64,000 nt of DNA from Laetmonice hystrix. Its lineage: Eukaryota. Below, one piece after another: positions 4,401-64,000 of this stretch. The DNA is taken from NCBI GenBank assembly GCA_965235115.1, contig OZ249436.1, positions 6,574,001 through 6,638,000 on the forward strand. Direction: 5' to 3'. The notes under the pieces were generated by a model, which did no database searches, was not told where the DNA came from, and saw nothing but the letters and a program-made list of their open reading frames with translations. Each line of letters opens with the position of its first letter. Position 1 is the first letter of the stretch. The position numbers and the translations under genes were made by a program.

Positions 4401-7400
4401 TGTACAAGGGAATAGCCTGGAATGTATTCCAGAAATATATGTTTTTCTGTATGACTTCACAGAGAAAATAAAAAGATTTAGATCATACATACGTCATTGT
4501 CTCGGTCTAATATAAGACTGCCCTTGTTTACTTATATTATTGCGTGACATAGAACGTTTTTAACGTCAGTAAAGATAAAGGGCGGATCACGGGAAGGCCA
4601 GAAGGGCATGTTAGGATGTGTTGTAACTTTTGTTGTACTGTAGTAACGTGAGAGACAACATGAAGGGAGTTCTAAATCTATGATGCCCGTTTTGTGTGCA
4701 TTCGACAACAACAAATTTCATAAATAGAATCTCCTTTCAGAGAAATTATGTTTTGTGGCCTTTATCTGGTCCGCTCATTACGTTTGGTGATTTAGTACTC
4801 AAATAATCCTCAGGTCTTGTTGCTGAAACTGCATCCGTGCCTCATTTATGTAAATGGTCTCCTTAAAAGTAATGTTTTTATGTCTGGATGCTGGTGTTGG
4901 GAATTCTCGACAACTCTTGCAGGTTTAGAGGCTTAGAGTTTCTCACCCAGTTGGTTTATTTACCAAATTACGGTACACGTCATGTTGTACTTACAGCCAT
5001 CCAATTTGCAGACGGCCTGTTTAAGTCTTACCCGGATAAGTGTTTAATTAAATGATTACGTATGAATCCAAGTTGTATATTAGAACCTTCAATTACGTAT
5101 CTCTGTCATAGTGAGGATATATAATTATTATTACATGACAGATTCACGCTCAGCCACCTCTGGTTGCCTCCAGAGGGAGCTGTTTCCACGTTTGCAGCCG
5201 GTTCCAGCCTGTCACTCAGCTCCTGTTTGTTACAATTCCAGTGTATTCTGATTGGGATTCTGACGACCAAAGTTACCAAAGGTGACCCAACTGACCCGTG
5301 ACCTGCTCCGTAGAAATGACGCAAGGCAACCCACAAGATTAAGGGGAGAACCCATCATTATGTCGGACGGTATAGGCCGATTCGACAGGATTAGCAGTTG
5401 GTTGATGTTGAAGGAAGCGTAGTTTTTTCTTCCCGATTTTGTCATTTACATACAGGTCGTGTGCTGTCCAATGTCGTCACTCGAATCTCCCAATAGAAGA
5501 CCAGCTGCAAACCGTAGATGTCATTTAATAGACCGTGAGGCCTTGAGACTGTATGCGCAGCAAAATAATTGTAAGACTTTATTGGCCCAATCAATCTGCG
5601 ACCCGATTCTCTCCAGGGACTGACCCGACAGTCACTCCTGACGCTCCATTGTTAGACCATCCTCCGTGACACAGCTAGAATTGGCTATAGAGGCTCAACC
5701 GGCGCTCATCACCATGGAAATACTCTTGGGTTGAGACGTTTAAATCTCTCTGAACAGTTATGACGCAAGGAAACTTTGCAAACTTTGCAAAAAGAAAGGA
5801 CAATTTCAGTGCAGTTTGAAATCGCTTTACCATTGAAGGGAGTTGTGCGTGACGTATTCGTCTGATAATATGCTTATCTTCAAGTTATTAAGTCAGCTTT
5901 CTGCTCAATAATTGTGGCGTCTAGTGGCAATCCCTGGCGTATGGACGCAATATTGTAATATTGTTTCTAGACTGCTAGCAATACTTTACACAGGAGTTCT
6001 GAAAGGCTCCATAAATGAAGTTGCGTGCTTTAATGGCCCATATCGCTTGATTATGCATGCAGAAGGTCTTGCTATATTTAACCGCGGATTCTACAAAATA
6101 GAGTTCATGGGAATAATGCAGTCAGTGCAGTTATTGCGTTCCCTTACCGTGCCATATGTGATAGAATTGCCAACCCCGCCTCCTGCCCTGGGCTATACGT
6201 GCTCTCAGACCTATATCGCATCATCCCGTTCTGTCGTCAAACTATGAATCAGTAAATATTTGATATGAACTCGTTGACAAAAGTAAACCACCGCCTGAAA
6301 CTCGAGTCATTGCCCTCTGTGACCCCGCAGGGCTAATTAAAATGAGAATAGCTACAGAGGGGGATTATGACATCGTTTGATGTAGGTAAAATAAATGCAG
6401 ATTTCATTATAGTATAGCCAGGAGGGATGCGGTGTTGAGGTTCTTATTACATCAAGAAGCAGATTGAAATACGGTAATTTCAGTCGTAGCTGAACTTTCT
6501 CTGAGCGCTATTGTGTTAACGGTTTTAGGTTTTGTTTGTTTTTTGTGTGTTTGTGCACAGACGAACAAAGATATTGTCTTATTAACGGTGCTGGAATTCT
6601 TTTGTCTCAGACGAATGAACATCGGTTATCAGTAGGATTACAAGATAAAACGCTGAAATTGTATCTCCGTGATGTTGATGGAATCAAATTCAGATTTAAA
6701 TTGGAATTTGTTGCTATGGCAATTCAGGCGTGGACGAGTGGGCGGGCGGGCGTGTTTACTGTCATAAAGAGCTTCAAGTCGGCTTTGTTTACAGAAAGCT
6801 TCGCGTCTTATCGAAAACAATATTATTTTCAACTTATTATTATACATAATTATTCATAAATCTGAGCATGAAGTATACCTTAGTAGATGGTATATCTTTT
6901 ATAGATAGTTTGGTGCATGCTTTATAACTTTAATATATTATCGTTATTTTTTTAGCGTAAAATGGTCATTTATATAGGCAGCGTTCTTTGGTAACAGCTG
7001 ATTGAAGAAACTTTTGATCTTTTCTCAGAGAACATTAGACAAAGATCGCATCATAAATATAATACTTGAGTGGCAATTTCTCTGCCATTTTCTATTCGAG
7101 ATGTGTTTATTATTATGAGAAGCGTTGTTGAATGGGTTTCTCTGAAGTTATTACTAGAAGCACTTAAGTAAAGCAGATGGCGACTGCAACACACAGGTTT
7201 ATGAGGGCCAAGAAATCTATTTATAGGACACTTACAGAGATTTGTGCTTTCCGCGATAGCACATGCGCATAGGGTAATGTGCATCTTTATTTAGGACTCT
7301 CCAGTAAACATCCCTGAGATCGCCTTTCTGGTAGAAAACAAAATCATTTTCCTTGATGATGTGCTACTGTAGGTGATGAATCACGTTTGTCGGGTGTCAG

Positions 7401-50900: not shown

Positions 50901-51432
50901 TTCTATATAATTACATGGAAGAGGGCGTCTATAACAGTCTTGATACATGTTAACCCATAACAAAGAAATACAAACAGTCCCTATATACTTCCTTCCAGGT
51001 TTTATGCTTTTATGACCGGTATGCCAATTTTGTAATCGTAGAAAACCTTTGATACGAAACTATCGTCACATACAAATACATGGATATTTAAGCGCATGTA
51101 TGACTGTATGTGTACAACTACAAGTTGCCTATATTAAACAGGCCACCACGCCATGTTCTTTTCTACGTTCTCATGTCGATATCTGTATAAATAATGGCCT
51201 AGTTCGCAGAATTGATATGTATGGCCTGTAGATTTTATTGTAAATTGACGACAGTGCTCCTAGCACATCCTCGGATGACCGCCAGTAGTAGATGACATGA
51301 TCAGGATCAGGAGTCATTGGCAGGCAAACGTAGGAATCGTGACTCTCACTGGCTCCTGGCTCAGAACTCGCATTTTATATACTACTACCACCAGAATGGT
51401 GATGATAACGTCGTATAATGGTGAACAACATA

Positions 51433-52214
51433 GTCCGTGTTAAGACAACGTCTGCCATGGTCCGTGTTAAGACAAGGTCTGCCATGGTCCGTGTTAAGAC
51501 AAGGTCTGCCATGGTCCGTGTTAAGACAAGATCTGCCATGGTCCGTGTTAAGACAAGATCTGCCATGGTCCGTGTTAAAACAAGATCTGCATGGTCCGTG
51601 TTAAGACAAGGTCTGCCATGGTCCGTGTTAAGACAAGATCTGCCATGGTCCGTGTTAAAACAAGATCTGCATGGTCCGTGTTAAGACAAGGTCTGCCATG
51701 GTCCGTGATAAGACAAGATCTGCCATGGTCCGTGTTAAAACAAGATCTGCATGGTCCGTGTTAAGACAAGGTCTGCCATGGTCCGTGTTAAGACAAGGTC
51801 TGCCATGGTCCGTGTTAAGACAAGATCTGCCATGGTCCGTGTTAAGACAAGGTCTGCCATGGTCCGTGTTAAGACCAGGTCGGCCATGGTCCGTGTTAAG
51901 ACAACGTCTGCCATGGTCCGTGTTAAGGCAAGGTCTGCCATGGTCCGTGTTAAGACAAGGTCTGCCATGGTCCGTGTTAAGACAAGGTCTGCCATGGTCC
52001 GTGTTAAGACGAGGTCTGCCATGGTCCGTGTTAAGACAAGGTCTGCCATGGTACGTGTTAAGACAACGTCTGCCATGGTCCATGAATGTCTGCCATGGTG
52101 CGTGTTAAGACAACGTCTGCCATGGTCCGTGAAGGTCTGCCATGGTGCGTGTTAAGACAACGTCTGCCATGGTCCGTGTTAAGGCAACGTCTGCCATGGT
52201 CCGTGTTAAGACAA
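51433..52214. repeat. 27-bp minisatellite, ~29 copies
   Basis: Unit ccatggtccgtgttaagacaaggtctg. Confidence 0.95.
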
Positions 52215-52836
52215 GTTTGAACAGTATTGTGTTCTCTCAGTCTGCCATGGTCTACAGTTTTAGGAACCTGTAGTATCCAGGTTCATTCGGTCATGGCTAT
52301 GTCTCTAAGGATGGTAGTGACATTCCTGTACGGGGTGTATGTAAATATTTCTACTTAGTGAAGAATGTATGAGGACGTTATACTTGGTTTGCACAATTAA
52401 AAGCACCCAGATCGCCAAACTATAATAATATGACAACCCGTATACTAAAGTATGCTATTTATGTTGACACGATTGCCATTTTCCGGGTAGTTCGTCAAAA
52501 CTATAGGCCTATAGCCACTATTAACTATTAAATCTTCTATAGCGTGTGGACTTCGTGAACTGTGTAATGTCAACGTATATATCTCCGTGTTAATGTTATA
52601 TTTACGTGGGTATTTTTGCAACTTAGGTGCTAGTGTGAACTTGCTGCGTGTACAGAAGCATTGGCCAGGAGACACTATGTACATAGGTGTGAGTATATAC
52701 TAATATTGCCTGTCAATGATACAGTATTGAGTCACCGACTGACCACGGATCCCGGAGCGAGAGGCGGGTTCGGGTCGTCACGTCAGGTTACTGCTGCACC
52801 ACGTCATGTTGTAACACCCACCAGTAGAACTCTAAC

Positions 52837-52970
52837 CCTCTATCTCTGTTTGTCTTTCTTTCTTTCTGTCTCTCTGTCTGTCTGTCTCTCTGTATGTCTG
52901 TCTCTCTGTATGTCTCTTTCTCCCTGTCTGTCTCCCTGTCTCTCTGTCTCTCTGTATGTCTGTCTCCCTG

Positions 52971-53009
<39 letters not shown>

Positions 53010-53175
53010 GTCTCTTTCTCCCTGTATGTCTCTCTGTCGATCTGTCTCTCTGTTTCTGTCTCTGTCTCTCTCTCTGTCTCCCTCCCCCCTCCCTCCCTCC
53101 CTCTCTCTCTCTCCCTCTCTCCCTCTCTCTCTCTCTCTGTCTCTCTCTGTCTCTCTCTATCTCTCTCTCTCTCTG
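52837..53175. repeat. (TC)n/(TCTG)n microsatellite tract
   Basis: Low complexity; explains the SL-rich and RE-rich ORFs 52661-53299. Confidence 0.95.
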
Positions 53176-54807
53176 CACCCCTCGGAAGTCATCTCACTCC
53201 CGCCCTAGGCACTCTGTAAACAAATTCTTTACAACAAAGCGCCAACTCCGATTTTGTCTCAGAACGGTTTCTTCTTGGGTGTATTTCTTCCTGTCATAGA
53301 TTTCCCTAAAATTTTATATTCAAAATATAAACTTGTAAACTTGTAATATAAAGTTATCCGTATTCAATTATTCACTTGCCGAACTTTTGGACAAAGTATT
53401 CATTAGGTACTCGTGCGACAAAAGTTCCTATTTGCACATGGTTGCAATCATTTCAGGGTTCTTGAAATAAAATCAATGTTTTAGCAGTGTGTACAAGTAC
53501 TATGCGACCTGTGTTAATGACTATACAACCCTTGGCCATCGTTAGTACACCTGATATTCCTGTCTACCATTATATACATGCCAGTCTGTCCTTGGCCAAA
53601 CTATAGGATGCACCTCGTCCGATGTTGGTTTGTATACTCCCAGTACTATAGACAGCTATGGTGTCGACGGGGGTATAGTTGTATCGTTTTTTACATCTTG
53701 GAAAGTAGAGAAGAATGGATTAGGAAAAATTAAACTATAAGCTCCGGTCTCCAACAATCGACATAATGGACTTTGATAAGGTTACACCGTTCCGCAGAAA
53801 GACATTCTGATCGAGCTTAGAACCAAGAGTAGATAGAACCAAAGGTAGACCATATGTCCTCTGACCCGAACATAGCACTTCATGGCTTTTAATAGAAGCG
53901 GAGGCCTCTGTAAAGTTCTGTAAATATAATGGTTACTGGTCAAAGCCTCTTCCCTCTTCTGCAATAAAAGAAACAGAAATGTTTACAAATCTTTTGGTGT
54001 CAGTCTTGTTTCACTTTACACAATATTCTATAGCTCTACATGCTGGTAGGGGATTGGTAAACTCTACACGTCTGGTAAGTCCGAATGTATTATTAAAACA
54101 TTGCGCTTGGTATCATTATTTAGATTCACTTCAGTCAGACTCAGGTTGCAGCTCCCCCCCCCCTCTGGATCAGGCCCTGTTGTAGCTGTATGCCGCTAGG
54201 TGGGGGGGGGGGGGGTTGTCGCTTGTCGGCACGCGGTGGTGAGATCGTCGATCCAAGACTGACCCTACGTGACTCCGGTTTCTTCCCAGCGATGAACATT
54301 ACAATTAAATCTATACATGTATGTGGGTGGCGGGAGGGTGCCGGGCAGGTCTTGTTTTCACACAAGGCGGCGCCACCAGTCTGCGCTCTTCTCATCTCAG
54401 GGGCCTATAATAAGTATAGGCCTACGCATAATTGTTGAGTATGATATTATGAGGATAACATGAAGATCAAGAAGCTCACTTTCCTTTACCCTAATTAGAA
54501 TGTATACATTTGGCACGCTTTGAGAATTTTTGTTGGTAGTATAACTTAGGGTCCCTTACAGAAAAATGAAAGTCACATCTTAAGTTGAAGGATTTATATC
54601 TGTCTGGACGCAGAGAATAATATGAAAGATGGCCGACCGGCCGGGAATTGATGACATCGTTACTGAACAAATTCCAGCAAAGCCCAATTATCGTGAATAT
54701 AGAAGGTGCACAAAAATACTCTTGATGCATGTAAAAAGTATAATTACTATATAACTCCCCGGGACTGGTTCAGAGGCATGCAAAGAAAGAACACGTATTA
54801 CAGGATG

Positions 54808-56058
54808 TATGTATAGGTTAGTCAACGGTTACGAGGGTGGACGCATGAAATAACCGATTCGAGCCGCAGCGAGAATCGGTTATTTCATGCGTCCACTCCC
54901 GAGTATAAGTTGACTAACTTATATACACCCCTGAGGAACACCATTGTAGCATCAACAATTTTTTTCTCGATAAAATAAGGCACTTTTTGTGGCTGTCCTA
55001 TGAAACCGTGCATGCAGTGCATGCAGGGTTATATAGGACACGGGCCGAGTCCTCATTGACTTCAACCATGAACCCAACCCATGGGACGGTTCATGCCTGT
55101 CGCTGTTCACCTTCGAACCTGTTGGCAGGATTATTTTTAGAGCTCAGGATCAGTCGCAGAGTTGGCCCAGTTTCGACTGAACCAACTGAACCGTGTCATT
55201 TCATACGCGAGTTCATTCTAATCTGCACCAGTACAACAGCAGTCATGGACGACTCAGACGTGTCTGACACTGACATACTGCTCCACACCCAGATCATAGA
55301 AAGCTCGCAGCTTTCGGCCACCATTTCCAACCATGAAGAAGGCCTAAATTCTTCTAGTGACGAAGACATTCTGTCTGCAACACAGGCAATTGAAAATGCT
55401 GAGGGTGCCAAGAATATCAGAAATCCTGAATAGTATTGAGGTGTCTGCCCCGAAGAAGCCATGCACAGTGACTCTAGGTAGCATGGAGGAAGATTCTAGG
55501 ACTGACCGCCCTACTACCAATAGTCTGCCCAGCCATAACGTTCCGGATTTTCTCCATAGAGCAACCTTCACAAACTGTAGTTTCCTTTCATCAATAAATA
55601 AAATCAGAAATAAATGAATAAATGTGGAATAAACATGAATAAATGTGGACCCCTCCAAAAATGTTCCTATCAAAGGCTACTTCTTCTCGATGTCCAATAT
55701 GACCCCTATCTATCAACCTATGACAGTCATTTGGGAGCCAGGAATAACAAAAAGCTATCCTATACTATGAAACTCTATATGACTCCATAAACAGTTACAT
55801 ATATTCGTATAAAAACTGAACATTTTTTGGGTGGGGGTGGTGACAATTTTCGGGACCCCCCCCCCCCCCCAGGAGTTAATTGTTGCGGCCGAGCGGTAGC
55901 GAGGATCTGTTATATTCGAAACCCCCTACCCTAAAAACTAGAGGGAACCGAGAATCTTTAGGGTAGGGGGATGAGAAATTTTCGAAAACCCGAGAGGTGA
56001 TATCGAATGAAACCCGAGTGTAGCGAGGGTTTAGTCGATATCAACACGAGGGACTGAA
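54808..56058 (+). mobile_element. Internally deleted Crypton-like (tyrosine recombinase transposon) element
   Basis: Left hairpin 54808-54927 with a perfect 24-bp inner stem; right hairpin ~55990-56052 with loop cgagtgtagcga; residual ORF pieces MDDSDVSDTDILLHTQIIE..DEDILSATQAIE (from 55245) and ISEILN..FLHRATFTNCSF (to 55617) resemble N- and C-termini of DUF3504-type Crypton proteins; absent from the homologous sites near 59107 and 63674. Confidence 0.55.
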
Positions 56059-56059
56059 A

Positions 56060-56207
56060 CGCCATGACATAGTGGTTAGAGCACTCGACTTCCACGCCAG
56101 CAACCCGCGTTCGCTTCCCGTGGTGACCAGTTTACCTGGGCTGGTTACATGGGAGCAGTCGCAGGCATGGTTTCACTGATATAACCGGCTCCGTGGGGTT
56201 TATCTGG
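56060..56207 (+). mobile_element. 3'-truncated tRNA-derived SINE
   Basis: tRNA-like head (tagtggttagagc ... gacttccac ... gttcgcttccc) followed by non-tRNA body ending at gtggggtttatctgg, which resembles the start of a V-like core. Confidence 0.6.
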
Positions 56208-56248
56208 ATATAATATTAGCAAGATCGATTCTTTTGTGATGTTGTGGG

Positions 56249-56264
56249 GGTCCTGAGAAGGACC
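56249..56264 (-). terminator. Histone mRNA 3' stem-loop (copy 1)
   Basis: GGTCCT-TCTC-AGGACC followed by CCCA and purine-rich AAAAGAA, ~30 bp after the H2B stop. Confidence 0.9.
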
Positions 56265-56293
56265 ATTAGTTTCGTTTCGTAGATTGAGCCTCT

Positions 56294-56661
56294 TCACTTG
56301 GAGCTGGTGTATTTGGTGACGGCCTTGGTGCTTTAACTGACGGCGTGCTTGGCCAGCTCACCGGGGAGAAGCAGACGGACGGCCATCTGGATATCCCGGC
56401 TGGTGATGGTAGAGCGGCGGTTGTAGTGGGCCAGACGTGGAGCCTCGGCTCGAAGATGTCGTTCACAAACGAGTTTATGATAGACATGGCCTTGCTGGAG
56501 ATACCCGAGTCTGGGTGGACCTGCTTCAACACCTTGTAGATCTAGATGTAGATGGAGTAGGGGCCCCTCCTCCTCTTCTTGCGCTTCTTGTCGCCCGTGC
56601 GGACGGCGTTGGCCTTGCTAGCGGCCTTCTTAGCTCCCTTCGACGCTGGTTTTGGCGGCAT
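56294..56661 (-). pseudogene. H2B: Histone H2B pseudogene (copy 1)
   Basis: [80 protein letters not shown]; 6-bp duplication with TAG, 10-bp deletion after DIFE, GAA>TAA nonsense; 368 bp total. Confidence 0.97.
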
Positions 56662-56918
56662 GATGACTAAGATGCCAGCCGGTGCGTTTTCTTTATATAT
56701 GGAGTCGTATGCAAATTAGCAGCGAGTTCATACTGAAAGGAGCCATGCATGGTTCATCCGCCTTCCGTTGGTGGCGCCACCGTACAGTGCTGCGGTTCGA
56801 CCCATGTTTGAACTCGCTCATTCGCTTGCATATAAACGCGGAGAACACCGGCCTCGCCATTGTGCTAGACATTGTGCTAGACAGATATTTTGCTAACACA
56901 CCCATCCAAACAATCATC
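56662..56918. promoter_or_regulatory. Divergent H2B/H2A-type promoter (copy 1)
   Basis: Minus strand: TATATAAA 56692-56699 and octamer ATTTGCAT 56709-56716; plus strand: TATAAA 56831-56836 and a leader ending aacaatcatc; inverted TGAACTCGCT pair at 56721-56730 and 56809-56818. Confidence 0.75.
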
Positions 56919-57385
56919 AAGTTGTCCGATGGAGGATTACAAGTGGCGTCCATTAGAGAAAGGCTTAAAACCAAGAGAATTAAAATAGCATTATCCCTAA
57001 TCTTGGTAGAAGGAACTGACAAATTCTATATTGGTCGAGAACTTAGATATGAGCGGAATGAGTTAAGTAGTAACTTGAGTCCACATAGTGAAATAAAACC
57101 TAGTTTTTTGAGGAAAGCGATAGAAGATTGGTTTTATTTTCGTTCTGCATTTCCAAGTGTTAAAATTATTGACGACTTAAGCGTTTTAAATCATTCCCTG
57201 GCCAGTACAAGCATAAATTTGTGCGCACTGAACAAGGTAGCAATGGCATTCATAGGAAGAATTTCAAGTTGGCACACACACTCAGCTTCTCAAAGCAGAC
57301 AGAAACGTGGAGATGTTGGTATAAAACCGGCTATTTCTGTACACAATTGGCTGGAAGTGTACGAAAGTATATATTCTCTGAAAGC
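56919..57385 (+). mobile_element. L1/Tx1-clade LINE ORF2 fragment, post-RT region (copy 1)
   Basis: KLSDGGLQVASIRERLKTKRIK..FYIGRELR..LSSNLSPHSEIKPSFLRKAI..NWLEVYESIYS resembles the GGLxV..K / YWIGxxLR / SNxxPHSxxxPxFY / WxxVWxxI motif series of L1/Tx1 ORF2; recognised by eye. Confidence 0.62.
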
Positions 57386-57650
57386 TCTATTAGTTCTCTA
57401 TCAGATGAGACCAGGAAATCACATATTTATGCATTTAGTTTCATTTTATTTGACCTTGAGTTGCTGAAAGTCTGAAAATAGGCAATTGTACATGGTTCAA
57501 AATTATCACCCATATACGCCACCCGTGTGACAGACAGTGCACTTTGAAGCGCTGCTAGGGACACGGACGGGGCACCAGAGGTTTAATGAAATATACCACT
57601 AGGACGGCGACATGTTTGAGTGTTTCAATAAATGTCAGGCCAATCAAAAA

Positions 57651-57835
57651 CGTGCGGGCGGCGTTGGCCTTGCTAGCGGCCTTCTTAGCTCCCTTCGATG
57701 CTGGTTTTGGCGGCATGATGACTAAGGGGCCAGCCGGTGCGTTTTCTTTATATATGGAGTCGTATGCAAATTAGCAGCGAGTTCATACTGAAAGGAGCCA
57801 TGCATAGTTCATCCGCGTTCCGTTGGTGGCGCCAC
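57651..57835 (-). pseudogene. H2B: 5' fragment of H2B (first ~22 codons) plus promoter, unit 1
   Basis: Duplicate of ~56596-56780 including ATG (57716), TATA and octamer. Confidence 0.9.
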
Positions 57836-59161
57836 ATATTATACCCCGTCGCCGTGCCTGCTAGGGAGCATGTTTGGCGCTGCAGTCGCTTGACAGGCTG
57901 CCGCCGTCACGTGTGATGCCAAGGCCAATCAGCAGCCATGTATGAACTCGCCGTTTCAGAAATCTAAGCTACTTGCTGGTTACCGGCCCATTTGACCAGC
58001 AAGATGGCGTCGGTCGTCATAACCCTAGATTTCATCATTTTCAGTAATATCTTATAATAGAAATTATTTACAATAACAATTTATGGATAGTCGTTGCACT
58101 TTTAGTCCCGCAGACAACATATCCAAATCCAAGGTTTGGGTTGTGGCTACAAAATGCTTATATCTTATCATAAATAAGGTGGTTCGCGCGGGACACCACT
58201 CTGGAGGTCCAGCGCCACCTCGATACTATATAAAGCCCGCACTACCACTGGTAATATGTAGTGAACGGTCACGTCTGAAAGTATCGCTTAGATAGACTCG
58301 GGTCTGTCTCCCATGAACTGGCTGATGGGTCGGAAGGAGCTTGCATGGGTCCACGTTCGGTCGTAGTCTGGCAACACGTGCTGATGGTCAAACACTGACA
58401 GTATGATGAGTCGCTTAGTGTCCACTTGGAGGCGGGAGGGTGCAAGCCTGAGAAAAGTGCGACATGACTCTTCTAAAGGGATGTAGCAATACAACCCGTT
58501 CCCCGTCAGTGGGTCGATCTGTGGCATAGTTCCGTATGGCGGCTACCATTGGGTTATCACGTGTTGTATCAGACGCCAGATCTTCGAACGGTAGGATGAA
58601 CGAATCTAGTCGACTAAGACCAAGTTCACTTTTTTTAAATAATTCACCTCTCATACTTTTTTTAATCACTCATATAATTGACAAGTGATGCCGAGGTCAG
58701 CCTAATAAAGCAGATGGTGCTTTAAGACAGGACGTTGTTTCACTGAAAGGTGTCTGTCTTTGACCGAGTCGGTCGTAAGGCACGTCAGCTGAACGCCCCC
58801 CCCCCCCATCGCCACCACCTCATGGCGGCCCACCCAAGGTTAATTAAAATTCCTCCATCATCTGAAAATCAAAAACGCTACCGTTCTCCGTTTTGTGCAA
58901 GGCTCGTGACGACCGACCAGGATTGATTATGAGAAGTGTGTGGTTGTGAATGTTTTAAGTTGTGAACGTGATGTTCCAATGTTGGCAGGTATCAGATATT
59001 CTCAAACATACAGTGTACTCAAAATGTCAGATACCATGTATAGTTTAAGGTTTCCTTCGATATAAGACGGTTATAGACGTATGCAAGGAAAGAACACGTA
59101 TTACAGTATATAAAATATGGATATAATATTAGCAAGATCGATTCTTTTGTGATGTTGTGGG

Positions 59162-59177
59162 GGTCCTGAGAAGGACC
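59162..59177 (-). terminator. Histone mRNA 3' stem-loop (copy 2)
   Basis: Identical to copy 1. Confidence 0.9.
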
Positions 59178-59206
59178 ATTAGTTTCGTTTCGTAGATTCA
59201 GCCTCT

Positions 59207-59574
<368 letters not shown>

Positions 59575-59831
59575 GGTGACTAAGATGCCAGCCGGTGCGT
59601 TTTCTTTATATATGGAGTCGTATGCAAATTAGCAGCGAGTTCATACTGAAAGGAGCCATGCATGGTTCATCCGCGATCCGTTGGTGGCGCCACCGTACAG
59701 TGCTGCGGTTCGACCCATGTTTGAACTCGCTCATTCGCTTGCATATAAACGCGGAGAACACCGGCCTCGCCATTGTGCTAGACATTGTGCTAGACAGATA
59801 TTTTGCTAACACACCCATCCAAACAATCATC
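59575..59831. promoter_or_regulatory. Divergent H2B/H2A-type promoter (copy 2)
   Basis: Same octamer, TATA boxes and TGAACTCGCT pair as copy 1. Confidence 0.75.
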
Positions 59832-60298
59832 AAGTTGTCCGATGGAGGATTACAAGTGGCGTCCATTAGAGAAAGGCGTAAAACCAAGAGAATTAAAATA
59901 GCATTATCCCTAATCTTGGGAGAAGGAACTGACAAATTGTATATTGGTCGAGAACTTAGATATGAGCGGAATGAGTTAAGTAGTAACTTGAGTCCTCATA
60001 GTGAAATAAAACCTAGTTTTTTGAGGAAAGCGATAGAAGATTGGTTTTATTTTCGTTCTGCATTTCCAAGTGTTAAAATTATTGACGACTTAAGCGTTTT
60101 AAATCATTCCCTGGCCAGTACAAGCATAAATTTGTGCGCACTGAAGAAGGTAGCAATGGCATTCATAGGAAAAATTTCAAGTTGGCACACACACTCAGCT
60201 TCTCAAAGTAGACAGAAACGTGGAGATGTTGGTATAAAACCGGCTATTTCTGTACACAATTGGCTGGAAGTGTACGAAAGTATATATTCTCTGAAAGC
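59832..60298 (+). mobile_element. L1/Tx1-clade LINE ORF2 fragment (copy 2)
   Basis: Near-identical to 56919-57385 with the same 5' junction. Confidence 0.62.
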
Positions 60299-60564
60299 TC
60301 TATTAGTTCTCTATCAGATGAGACCAGAAAATCACAGATTTATGCATTTCGTTTCATTTTATTTGACCTTGAGGCGCTGAAAGTCTGAAAATAGGCAATT
60401 GTACATGGTTCAAAATTATCACCCATATATCGCCACCCGTGTGACAGACAGTGTACTTTGAAGCGCTGCTAGGGACACGGACGGGGCACCAGAGGTTTAA
60501 TGAAATATACCACTAGGACGGCGACATGTTTGAGTGTTTCAATAAATGTCAGGCCAATCAGAAA

Positions 60565-60749
60565 CGTGCGGACGGCGTTGGCCTTGCTAGCGGCCTTCTT
60601 ATCTCCCTTCGACGCTGGTTTTGGCGGCATGATGACTAAGGTGCCAGCCGGTGCGTTTTCTTTATATATGGAATCGTATGCAAATTAGCAGCGAGTTCAT
60701 ATTGAAAGGAGCCATGCATAGTTCATCCGCGTTCCGTTGGTGGCGCCAC
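60565..60749 (-). pseudogene. H2B: 5' fragment of H2B plus promoter, unit 2
   Basis: Copy of 57651-57835. Confidence 0.9.
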
Positions 60750-61673
60750 ATATTATACCCCGACGCCGTGCCTGCTAGGGAGCATGTTTGGCGCTGCAGT
60801 CGCTTGGCAGGCTGCCGCCGTCACGTGTGATGCCAAGGCCAATCAGCAGCCATGTATGAACTCGCCGTTTCAGAAATCTAAGCTACTTGCTAGTTACCGG
60901 CCCATTTGACCAGCAAGATGGCGTCGGTCGTCATAACCCTAGATTTCATCATTTTCATTAATATCTTATAATAGAAATTATTTACAATAACAATTTATGG
61001 ATAGTCGTTGCACTTTTAGTCCCGCAGACAACATATCCAAATCCAAGCTTTGGGTTGTGGCTACAAAATGCTTATATCTTATCATAAATAAGGTGGTTCG
61101 CGCGGGACACCACTCTGGAGGTCCAGCGCCACCTCGATACTATATAAAGCCCGCACTACCACTGGTAATATGTAGTGAACGGTCACGTCTGAAAGTATCG
61201 CTTAGATAGACTCGGGTCTGTCTCCCATGAACTGGCTGATGGGTCGGAAGGAGCTTGCATGGGTCCACGTTCGGTCGTAGCCTGGCAACACGTGCTGATG
61301 GTCAAACACTGACAGTATGATGAGTCGCTTAGTGTCCACTTGGAGGCGGGAGGGTGCAAGCCTGAGAAAAGTGCGACATGACTCTTCTAAAGGGATGTAG
61401 CAATACAACCCGTTCCCCGTCAGTGGGTCGATCTGTGGCATAGTTCCGTATGGCGGCTACCATTGGGTTATCACGTGTTGTATCAGACGCCAGATCTTCG
61501 AACGGTAGGATGAACGAATCTAGTCGACTAAGACCAAGTTCACTTTTTTTTAGGTTAATTAAAATTCCTCCATCATCTGAAATTCAACAAACGCTACCGT
61601 TCTCCGTTTTGTGCAAGGCTCGTGACGACCGACCAGGATTGATTATGAGAAGTGTGTGGTTGTGAATGTTTTA

Positions 61674-63520
61674 GGGTCATTCCATGTCAAATCGACCAAT
61701 TTTGGAAAATCTTCCCGGGGGACCATCTTCGATTTCTTTCAAATTTGGCATGCAGTTAGACCTGTGTATTTGCAGTACAATCCTAAAATTCTGCTCCAAA
61801 ATACCCAACGGTCTCCGAGTTACACCCCGATAAGCGAGGGTGGGGGTACCCCTGAACAAAGCACGTTTAATTCTGAGCCATTTTTAGAGGGCTATCATTC
61901 AGAAACTGTAAGAGCTGGCAACTTGTATTTTTTCCCACTGAAACTTCAATATGGAGAGACCAGGAAAAAGCAATAACATTTTATTTCTTTGCTTATTCCT
62001 TGGAACACCATGCCCCCCAAAATTGAAAAAAACAGATCGGAGAAAAAAAAGTTCAATATTCAAACATTTTTCATGCGAAGGTTATTTCTTGTAACTTCTT
62101 GATTTTTGGGGATTTGATTTATGGCTATATGAGGTGCATGTAGACACCAAAATAATCTTCCAAAAATAGACACAGGTGGCGCCACTAGTGGCCAAAGTTG
62201 GCCGATCGCTAAATATGACCCATTTTGAGAGGCCATTTTACCTATGTGGCCAAGGTGGAAGAGCGTTGGGATATTTTTTCCTTGATAGTGCACATTTTTG
62301 CCATTAACAAAACCTAAGTCCCTAATCCCTTCCATACTTCCTTCCCTGTCAAATAATTTTTCAAATAATATCCATTTGAGTAAAGTTCACGCTGTGATGG
62401 GATATGAGGTACGTTGTTTTTATATCATAAAATTTTTATTATTTGCCAAAGAATTTTTGAAAGTGGTAAATATCCTAAACTGTTGGTCTTTTGTAGATTT
62501 TTGTCTTTAAATTAATTAGTTAATTAATTAATTATAAATAAATTTATAAATTTATTTTAATTAATTAATTAAATTAATTAATTAAATTATTGATTTAATA
62601 ACTTAAAATCATAAAATATAATAATATAAGATAAAATATAAAAATAAATTATAAATTTATTTTACAATTAATTAATTACTTTAATAATTAATTTAAATAC
62701 AAAAATCTTCAAAAGACCAACAGTTTAAGCTATTTACCACTTTCAAGAATTCTGTGGCAAATAATAAAAATTTTATGATATAAAAACAATGTACCTTGTA
62801 TCTCGTCACAGCGTGAACTTTACTAAAATGGATATTATTTGAAAAACTATTTGACAGGGAAGGAAGTATGGAAGGGATTAGGGACTTAGTTTTCTTTAAT
62901 GTCCAAAATGTGCTTTATCAAGGAAAAAATATCACAATGCTCTTCCACCTTGGCAACATAGGCAAAATGGCCCCTCAAAATGGGTCATATTTAGCGATCG
63001 GCCAACTTTGACCACTAGTGGCGCCACCTGTGTCTATTTTTAGAAGATTATTTTGGTGTTTGCATGCACTTCATATAACCATAAATCAAATCCCCAAAGA
63101 TCAAGAAGTTACAAGAAGGAACTTTTGCATGAAAAATGTTTGAATATTGAATTTTTTTTTCTCCGATGTGTTTTTTTCTATTTTGGGGGGCATGGTGCTC
63201 CAAGGAATAAGCAGAGAATTAAAATGTTATTACTTTTTCCTGGTCTCTACATATTAAAGTTTCAGTGGGCAGAAATACAAGTTGCCAGCTCTTATAATTT
63301 CTGAATGGCAGCCCTCTAAAAACGGCTCAGAAAAAGAAGCGTTTTTTTCAGGGGTACCCCCACCCAAACTCATGGGGGTATAACATGGGAACCGTTGGGA
63401 ATTTGGAAGAAAAATTTCAGAAATGTACTTCAGATATATAGATCTAACTACATGCCAAATAAGAAAAAAATTGGAGATGGTCACCCGGGAGCCACTGGTC
63501 GATTTGACATGGAATGACCC
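61674..63520. mobile_element. 1847-bp palindromic non-autonomous DNA transposon (Sola-like)
   Basis: Ends gggtcattccatgtcaaatcgacca / tggtcgatttgacatggaatgaccc; ~830-bp imperfect inverted arms around an AT-rich centre; TTTA duplicated at 61670-61673 and 63521-63524; empty site visible near 58953. Confidence 0.85.
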
Positions 63521-63728
63521 TTTAAGCTGTGAACGTGATGTCCCAATGCTGGCCGGTATCAGATATTCTCAAACATACAGTGTACTCAAAATGTCAGATA
63601 CCATGTATAGTTTAAGGTTTTGTTCGATATAAGACGGTTATAGACGTATGCAAGGAAAGAACACGTATTACAGTATATAAAATATGGATATAATATTAGC
63701 AAGATCGATTCTTTTCTGATGTTGTGGG

Positions 63729-63744
63729 GGTCCTGAGAAGGACC
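63729..63744 (-). terminator. Histone mRNA 3' stem-loop (copy 3)
   Basis: Identical to copies 1 and 2. Confidence 0.9.
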
Positions 63745-63773
63745 ATTAGTTTCGTTTCGTAGATTGAGCCTCT

Positions 63774-64000
63774 TCACTTGGAGCTGGTGTACTTGGTGAC
63801 GGCCTTGGTGCTTTAACTGACGGCGTGCTTAGCCAGCTCACCGGGGAGGAGCAGACGGACGGCCATCTGGATATCCCGGCTGGTGATGGTAGAGCGGCGG
63901 TTGTAGTGGGCCAGACGTGGAGCCTCGGCTCGAAGATGTCGTTCACAAACGAGTTTATGATAGACATGGCCTTGCTGTAGATACCCGAGTCTGGGTGGAC
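63774..64000 (-). pseudogene. H2B: Histone H2B pseudogene (copy 3, cut by window edge)
   Basis: Shares the 10-bp deletion and the TAA nonsense with the other copies. Confidence 0.95.

Follow-up and report, generated by a model that had tools for sequence, protein, structure and literature searches.

The window analyzed here is a stretch of 64,000 nucleotides of Laetmonice hystrix DNA, from contig C1 of an animal assembly of 627 Mb. Its right-hand part holds pieces of histone genes, among them a divergent H2B/H2A promoter whose H2A side runs into a retrotransposon fragment instead of H2A. The features are as follows.

54415 to 54815, minus strand: H2B downstream flank from the histone cluster, with an A-run at H2B +539, where an old 3' end of the same Tx1 family lies in 16 other loci
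56202 to 56661, minus strand: H2B pseudogene and 3' flank, with its ATG at 56661
56632 to 56642, minus strand: empty target site of the Tx1 family, H2B +20 to +30 (the 11 bp that are doubled at filled sites)
56662 to 56918, no strand assigned: H2B/H2A divergent promoter and H2A leader
56919 to 57183, plus strand: internal Tx1 ORF2 piece, about residues 858 to 950 of a 1152-amino-acid frame (4457 to 4736 of the full-length element L084), joined at the H2A start
57177 to 57650, no strand assigned: repeated block, not part of the Tx1 element
57651 to 57835, minus strand: second, cut H2B 5' end with promoter to -128
57840 to 57993, minus strand: H4 promoter piece (to the TATA box) fused upstream of the H2B promoter
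59115 to 61550, no strand assigned: second copy of the unit 56202 to 58636 (98%), with the junction at 59832 and the Tx1 piece at 59834 to 60096
63682 to 64000, no strand assigned: start of a third local unit copy; the third and fourth copies run on past the window

The TATAAA that the initial annotation placed divergent from H2B is present at 56831 to 56836, and the leader ends at 56918, 257 bp from the H2B ATG (about 260 bp in that annotation). That this leader belongs to H2A, as had been proposed, is borne out by the intact genes. Of 33 candidates in a search for the H2A C-terminal family, 23 were matches, and in 21 of these 23 genomic H2A loci the promoter and leader match the window up to 56922 with 82 to 87% identity. 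The 21 loci form arrays on C4 and C20, with H2B divergent in 20 of them, and in all five loci read at the start (L061 to L063, L075, and L076) the H2A ATG follows the leader, so that position 56919 corresponds to the A with which the missing H2A ATG would begin. The H2B next to the junction is a pseudogene, with a stop at codon 40 and a frameshift further on. The sequence beyond the leader had been described as an L1/Tx1-like ORF2 segment from 56919 to 57385. This holds for 56919 to 57183, which match the full-length L1/Tx1 element L084 (81% identity between 56921 to 57183 and L084 4459 to 4736, in the post-RT region of ORF2, with one 20-nt gap), and fails for 57184 to 57385, which belong to another repeated block. 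The Tx1 piece was recognized solely via its full-length parent in the genome; a Pfam search with the window's 182-amino-acid frame gave no family, and comparing the fragment with longer proteins at the protein level gave no match. The block at 57177 to 57650 had no Pfam match in the five frames tried, and its 57184 to 57385 side had no long open frame among the 150 matches listed; in other loci (L043 and L045) there is a separate upstream part of about 250 bp more.

As had been seen initially, the junction recurs at 59832 in a 98% duplicate, and two further copies lie just right of the window. The claim that the junctions are duplicates of one event stands as to the single event and falls short as to the number, which is not two but at least 107, counted as genomic occurrences of the joint motif (pattern with up to 2 mismatches; 0 for the reversed control). 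These occurrences are spread over at least 8 contigs, a single array on C3 accounting for 69 of the first 100 listed, and the break point is the same in 24 of 25 junction rows, some of which are the same place twice. Because the junction is one old event that was copied, it gives no evidence of H2A targeting. The junction is real yet ordinary when taken alone; it is a pointer to a young L1/Tx1 family.

A first look at the genome gave 739 candidates for the leader and 778 for the Tx1 fragment, 40 of each being scored. The repeat that contains them in the window (54415 to 64000) and elsewhere (L005 to L060) is found genome-wide, often in tandem arrays, and consists of H2B, the H2B/H2A promoter, the H4 promoter piece, and the H2B 3' flank in scrambled order, with H2A coding sequence absent. 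Neither termini nor a transposase of this histone-derived repeat were found, and its boundaries are ragged, in the loci examined. Several other sequences accompany the repeat in the window. An insert of about 1.4 kb (54816 to 56200) lies in the first unit between H2B flank pieces and opens with a short inverted repeat (54847 to 54895), and between units 2 and 3 the repeat is interrupted by a foldback- or MITE-like insert of 1.8 kb with long inverted arms and an AT-rich center (61675 to 63500). The repeat cluster is preceded by a 27-bp minisatellite and by a (CT)n-rich tract (51375 to 52155 and 52634 to 53299).

Long-frame relatives of the window fragment were obtained by a protein search of the genome. 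L084, on C5, is a full-length element of 6.05 kb, with a 117-nt leader, ORF1, ORF2, a 3' UTR with short tandem repeats, and a poly(A). Its ORF2 is a 1152-residue stop-to-stop frame that contains the Pfam families Exo_endo_phos, RVT_1, and zf-RVT, and thus the N-terminal AP-like endonuclease, reverse transcriptase, and C-terminal zinc-binding region that are hallmarks of the L1 group. The other hallmarks are present as well: a poly(A) tail, target-site duplications (11 bp at L084, 77 bp at L123/L085, and about 10 bp at L133/L112), and 5'-truncated copies, with truncation points at L084 3831 and 5161. The best solved relative is LINE-1 ORF2p, with an E value of 1e-76 versus 1e-22 for R2, and the best protein relative of ORF2 is unnamed and 33% identical. 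An ORF1 with CCHC zinc knuckles is a feature of the Tx1 clade. The L084 ORF1 sequence has two CX2CX4HX4C (CCHC) knuckles; zf-CCHC was matched with an E value of 0.02, short of the cut-off, and is found in the Atlas look-alikes of ORF1. The parent family is young, with frames intact in some copies.

L084 lies within H2B in the sense orientation, with H2B +1 to +30 on its 5' side and H2B from +20 onward after the poly(A), 11 bp being duplicated. A search with the 5' end gave four candidates, and all four of these full-length 5' ends directly follow H2B +30. In three of the four full-length copies the poly(A) ends at H2B +20, hence the 11-bp duplication, and one event has its 5' end at +30 and its 3' end at +64 of H2B. 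A fifth match to the pattern of poly(A) plus site, on C2, was rejected as a chance match. For the 3' ends, 40 of 46 candidates were scored and 36 ends were read, comprising 34 listed ends, L084, and L005, with four tandem copies left out. The 36 ends collapse to 19 events: 16 share one old joint at H2B +539 (antisense), and two more pairs are duplicates. In seven events the 3' end joins H2B at +20 to +26, and with the +30/+64 event eight of the 19 are at the H2B site. Eleven events are in H2B coding sequence, the three off-site ones at about +13, +75, and +272 (the last being L090, at G000:C18:6115703, and a possible second site); five contact other portions of the histone-derived repeat, and three (L094, L112, and L117) have no histone link at the ends read. 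Of the six youngest copies (at least 97% at the 3' end), five lie at the site. These proportions, 11 of 19 in H2B coding sequence and 8 of 19 at one site, exceed the criterion of more than 20% of flanks for a target-specific Tx1 family that is given in the available part of PMC4494074. Since eight events lie outside H2B coding sequence, this is a preference and not strict specificity. The initial annotation had proposed 3' ends joining H2A as the test of targeting. None of the 36 ends joins H2A, and seven independent events join H2B +20 to +26 instead, so the suggestion that the family may target histone clusters survives in the preference for histone sequence, with H2B and not H2A as the target. 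No 3' end among the 36 joins U2.

All eight site insertions lie in H2B pseudo-copies, and none was found in the 20 intact assembled H2B genes, where about 0.5 would be expected (P of zero, 0.58, computed with 22 genes). The true target might accordingly be a dispersed histone-derived repeat, in a mobile or heterochromatic compartment, with the real H2B genes unused, much as Tx1-Mar uses a transposon. The 5' flanks, where read far enough, show the repeat's fusion of H4 promoter and H2B promoter, and several off-site insertions fall elsewhere within that repeat (L085, L110, and the +539 joint), which fits such a reading. We nevertheless judge it unlikely. The site is coding sequence and is identical in the intact H2B genes; 335 target-like 31-mers are present across the 627 Mb, and the pseudo-copies outnumber intact genes by about 15 to 1, so that absence from the clusters is to be expected; and relatives in other organisms, described below, adjoin histone starts.

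The insertions at the site are independent of one another. The element bodies are 99 to 100% identical to L084, and the flanks of the full-length copies are 84 to 92% (5') and 89 to 94% (3') alike among themselves. The copies lie on four chromosomes and their poly(A) tails differ. The copy 5'-truncated at L084 5161 has H2B to +25 on its left side, and in the C13 copy both duplication halves carry one and the same private T. A point on the other side is that the halves are not fully identical, with 2 mismatches in 33 positions over three copies. Finding 7 of 19 events at the site by chance has a probability of about 1e-37, or about 1e-18 given landing within the histone-derived unit, with a 5-nt window assumed. 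Three of the seven are older events with rearranged 5' sides (L091, L005, and L092/L093), and for these only the 3' ends count. H2B flanks that move with the unit, or duplication or gene conversion that spread one insertion, could in principle imitate such a pattern with no targeting at all: the four full-length copies share an identical 5' junction, and this genome does amplify such joints, the one in the window to at least 107 copies and the +539 joint to 16. Flanks that diverge by 6 to 16%, against bodies that differ by at most 1%, largely refute this explanation, and the differing tails and 5' truncation points and the target variant common to both duplication halves also speak against it; we consider it very unlikely indeed. 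At L005:767-1467 and at L128/L091 the flanks are repeated H2B of 150 to 190 bp (+24 to +171 and +21 to +208), which are either long duplications or tandem-unit deletion joints.

The window junction itself can be read in two ways. An older subfamily may have made a 5'-truncated insertion at the H2A start, with later loss of its 3' end and of the H2A body, in which case H2A would also be targeted. The break lies inside H2A +1 to +4, in sense and in frame; an ATG is at the joint in 3 of the first 100 listed copies; H2A +16 to +22 has AAGGGAG in common with the H2B site; and two relatives, L157 and L159, adjoin H2A or H4 starts. Against this, the junction is a single event, the 36 3' ends supply no counterpart at H2A, no copy among those read extends beyond L084 4736, and deletion joints between histone and internal Tx1 sequence are common in the repeat (L125 and L128). 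In addition, the old 3' end at H2B +539 is oriented the same way and is of similar age, so that one insertion deleting most of the cluster unit fits equally well. We therefore hold an insertion at H2A to be doubtful and regard the joint in the window as probably a deletion joint or an insertion accompanied by deletion. For the latter, a single event that took the H2A, H3, and H4 coding sequence out of a unit could have the +539 end as its far side; no locus examined links the window joint and the +539 end. On either form of this preferred reading, a single old rearrangement would have placed the Tx1 piece next to the H2A leader, and the joint was then amplified within the scrambled repeat.

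In light of these results, we think it likely that a young Tx1 family inserts with a sequence preference, and in sense, into H2B (+20/+30, with an 11-bp duplication) and that the window holds a fossil piece of it, multiplied in a scrambled histone repeat. LINEs insert by target-primed reverse transcription, with the target set by the endonuclease (PMC4494074 and PMC8869645, in the portions accessible to us). For the H2B family, the AP-like endonuclease would presumably nick near H2B +20; both this nick site and the preference of the enzyme are inferred from the 3' joints together with established LINE biology. A minor insertion mode may operate at A-runs. The hundreds of H2B pseudo-copies would offer harmless landing sites, and the same site sequence is present in the real genes. 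The element may also be transcribed from the upstream H2B promoter, a weaker proposition that is suggested by the short leader, the position of all full-length copies in sense below the promoter, a frame stop, and a 14-nt leader tag. The frame that begins at the H2B ATG is 11 codons long and, in all four full-length copies, meets a stop two codons inside the element, before ORF1. The tag was seen in one truncated copy inserted elsewhere, in which 14 nt of the H2B 5' leader (-17 on), foreign to the element body, stand at the 5' joint, the kind of trace expected if the enzyme switched templates to the head of a chimeric RNA. Read contigs span the 5' junction, all from one sample that is possibly the assembly's own and so not independent. 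There was no RNA among the sequencing runs listed as containing the element, the three listed being one sample.

One of the intact histone units contains a second Tx1 element. The unit on C4 is 7.4 kb long and has H2B, H2A, H3, and H4 together with U2 snRNA and 5S rRNA genes, with no H1 frame seen, and the unit on C20 also has a 5S gene. The U2 and 5S genes in histone units are at L139:1628-1819, L067:2817-2935, and L076:2847-2965. L235/L236 (G000:C4:36617400-36623830) is a Keno-type Tx1 of about 6.4 kb with a long tail, apparently full length from the ends and samples read, and it splits the U2 gene within an intact histone unit, its 5' joint being at U2 +28 and its 3' joint at about +36. The H2B family and this local element have 33 to 63% amino acid identity over three short samples. 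The Keno-type element in the U2 site is a separate family from the Tx1 at the H2B site. The two long gaps in the intact histone arrays were considered as places where the H2B-site family might be hidden and were rejected; the C4 gap is the Keno-type element in U2, and samples from the C20 gap (L228 and L229, G000:C20:7175400-7177220) include the L1-like ORF2 of another, unrelated family. The H2B family and a U2-targeting relative lie side by side in the same repeat unit, which allows the switching of targets to be studied in a single genome.

Relatives from other organisms were taken from metagenome contigs, as the best 80 of 507 related loci. Two of the 80, for which the contigs contain 5' ends only and therefore one junction apiece, open immediately past a histone start, in the sense orientation. 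L159 (L159:56-100) has ten H2A codons (to H2A about +30), a stop two codons on, and ORF1 at 501; L157 (L157:20-135) has a TATA box, a leader, five H4/H2A codons (+15), an immediate stop, and ORF1 at 189. A shuffled control gave 0.23 such five-codon matches over the whole set and both strands. The two loci came from blastn and short-motif scans; tblastn with whole histones against the 80 loci returned nothing. An Rfam scan of 20 loci found U2 sequence in five and U5 in two. Other metagenome relatives (L160, L187, L145, L166, L176, and L197) adjoin U5, U1-like, or (TC)n sequence, the U1 and (TC)n labels having been given by eye. A reverse transcriptase tree (LG+G4, 31 of about 190 rows), in which families placed by their flanks served as stand-ins for named Tx1 sequences, grouped the query and L157 with three U2-flanked elements (83/92, unstarred). 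This U2 group is inside a wider group with U5-flanked elements (86/92, unstarred), apart from other L1s, and L159 is separate. A single clade of histone-flanked elements (query, L157, and L159) was rejected, with a p-AU of 6e-5. We think it quite possible, if less than probable, that Tx1 elements from Keno-like ancestors more than once, and across several lineages of animals, took replication-dependent histone genes as their targets (H2B at +30, H2A at about +30 in L159, and H4/H2A at +15 in L157), inserting in sense past the start codon and borrowing the promoter with its S-phase and early-embryo timing, with a stop 0 to 2 codons in so that ORF1 is readable. The embedded U2 and 5S genes may have eased the switch.

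Single insertions in histone genes are familiar from the Drosophila element 297 in the H3 TATA box and from sea-urchin TU elements in an H2B orphon. Judged from sequence, the family described here is a target-specific Tx1 with a protein-coding target and a clear preference for one H2B site. A histone-targeting Tx1 was not found in full-text searches of the literature; subscription papers, Repbase Reports, and supplements, which were outside the scope of that search, may describe one. The targets listed for site-specific non-LTR elements (PMC8869645 and PMC4494074, available text) are genes for rRNA, tRNA, spliced leaders, and snRNAs, together with microsatellites, telomeres, and other transposons; protein-coding genes do not appear in those lists, and histone genes are not named as targets in the accessible parts of PMC4494074, PMC8869645, and PMC6136364. 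The histone retrocopies treated in PMC11727581, of which a portion was available, are a different matter. A young family with a defined 11-bp H2B site would extend the strategy of a safe multicopy target to histone genes, would provide a candidate AP endonuclease with a new specificity, and would point to a possible route for the multiplication of histone pseudogenes.

Among the closest known systems is Keno, a U2 snRNA-specific member of the Tx1 clade that inserts at about nucleotide 37 (PMC4494074 and PMC6136364, in part). Like Keno, the H2B family is a two-ORF element of the L1 group with an AP endonuclease and a poly(A), and its one site is close to the 5' end of a Pol II gene that is present in many copies. 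Unlike Keno, its target is protein coding (H2B codons 7 to 10) and not U2, and its specificity is looser, with 8 of 19 events at the site. Tx1L of Xenopus and the crocodilian Tx1-Mar target DNA transposons (PMC4494074, same part). With these the H2B family has in common a preferred site within an abundant repeat and a place above the 20% threshold, but here the abundant repeat is assembled from pieces of histone genes, and the site itself is histone coding sequence that functional genes also have. R2, specific to 28S rRNA genes, is cotranscribed with its target according to the text available from PMC4494074, and the H2B family may similarly rely on the promoter of its target gene, although R2 has one ORF and a restriction-like endonuclease, and cotranscription of the H2B family is suggested by one 14-nt tag.
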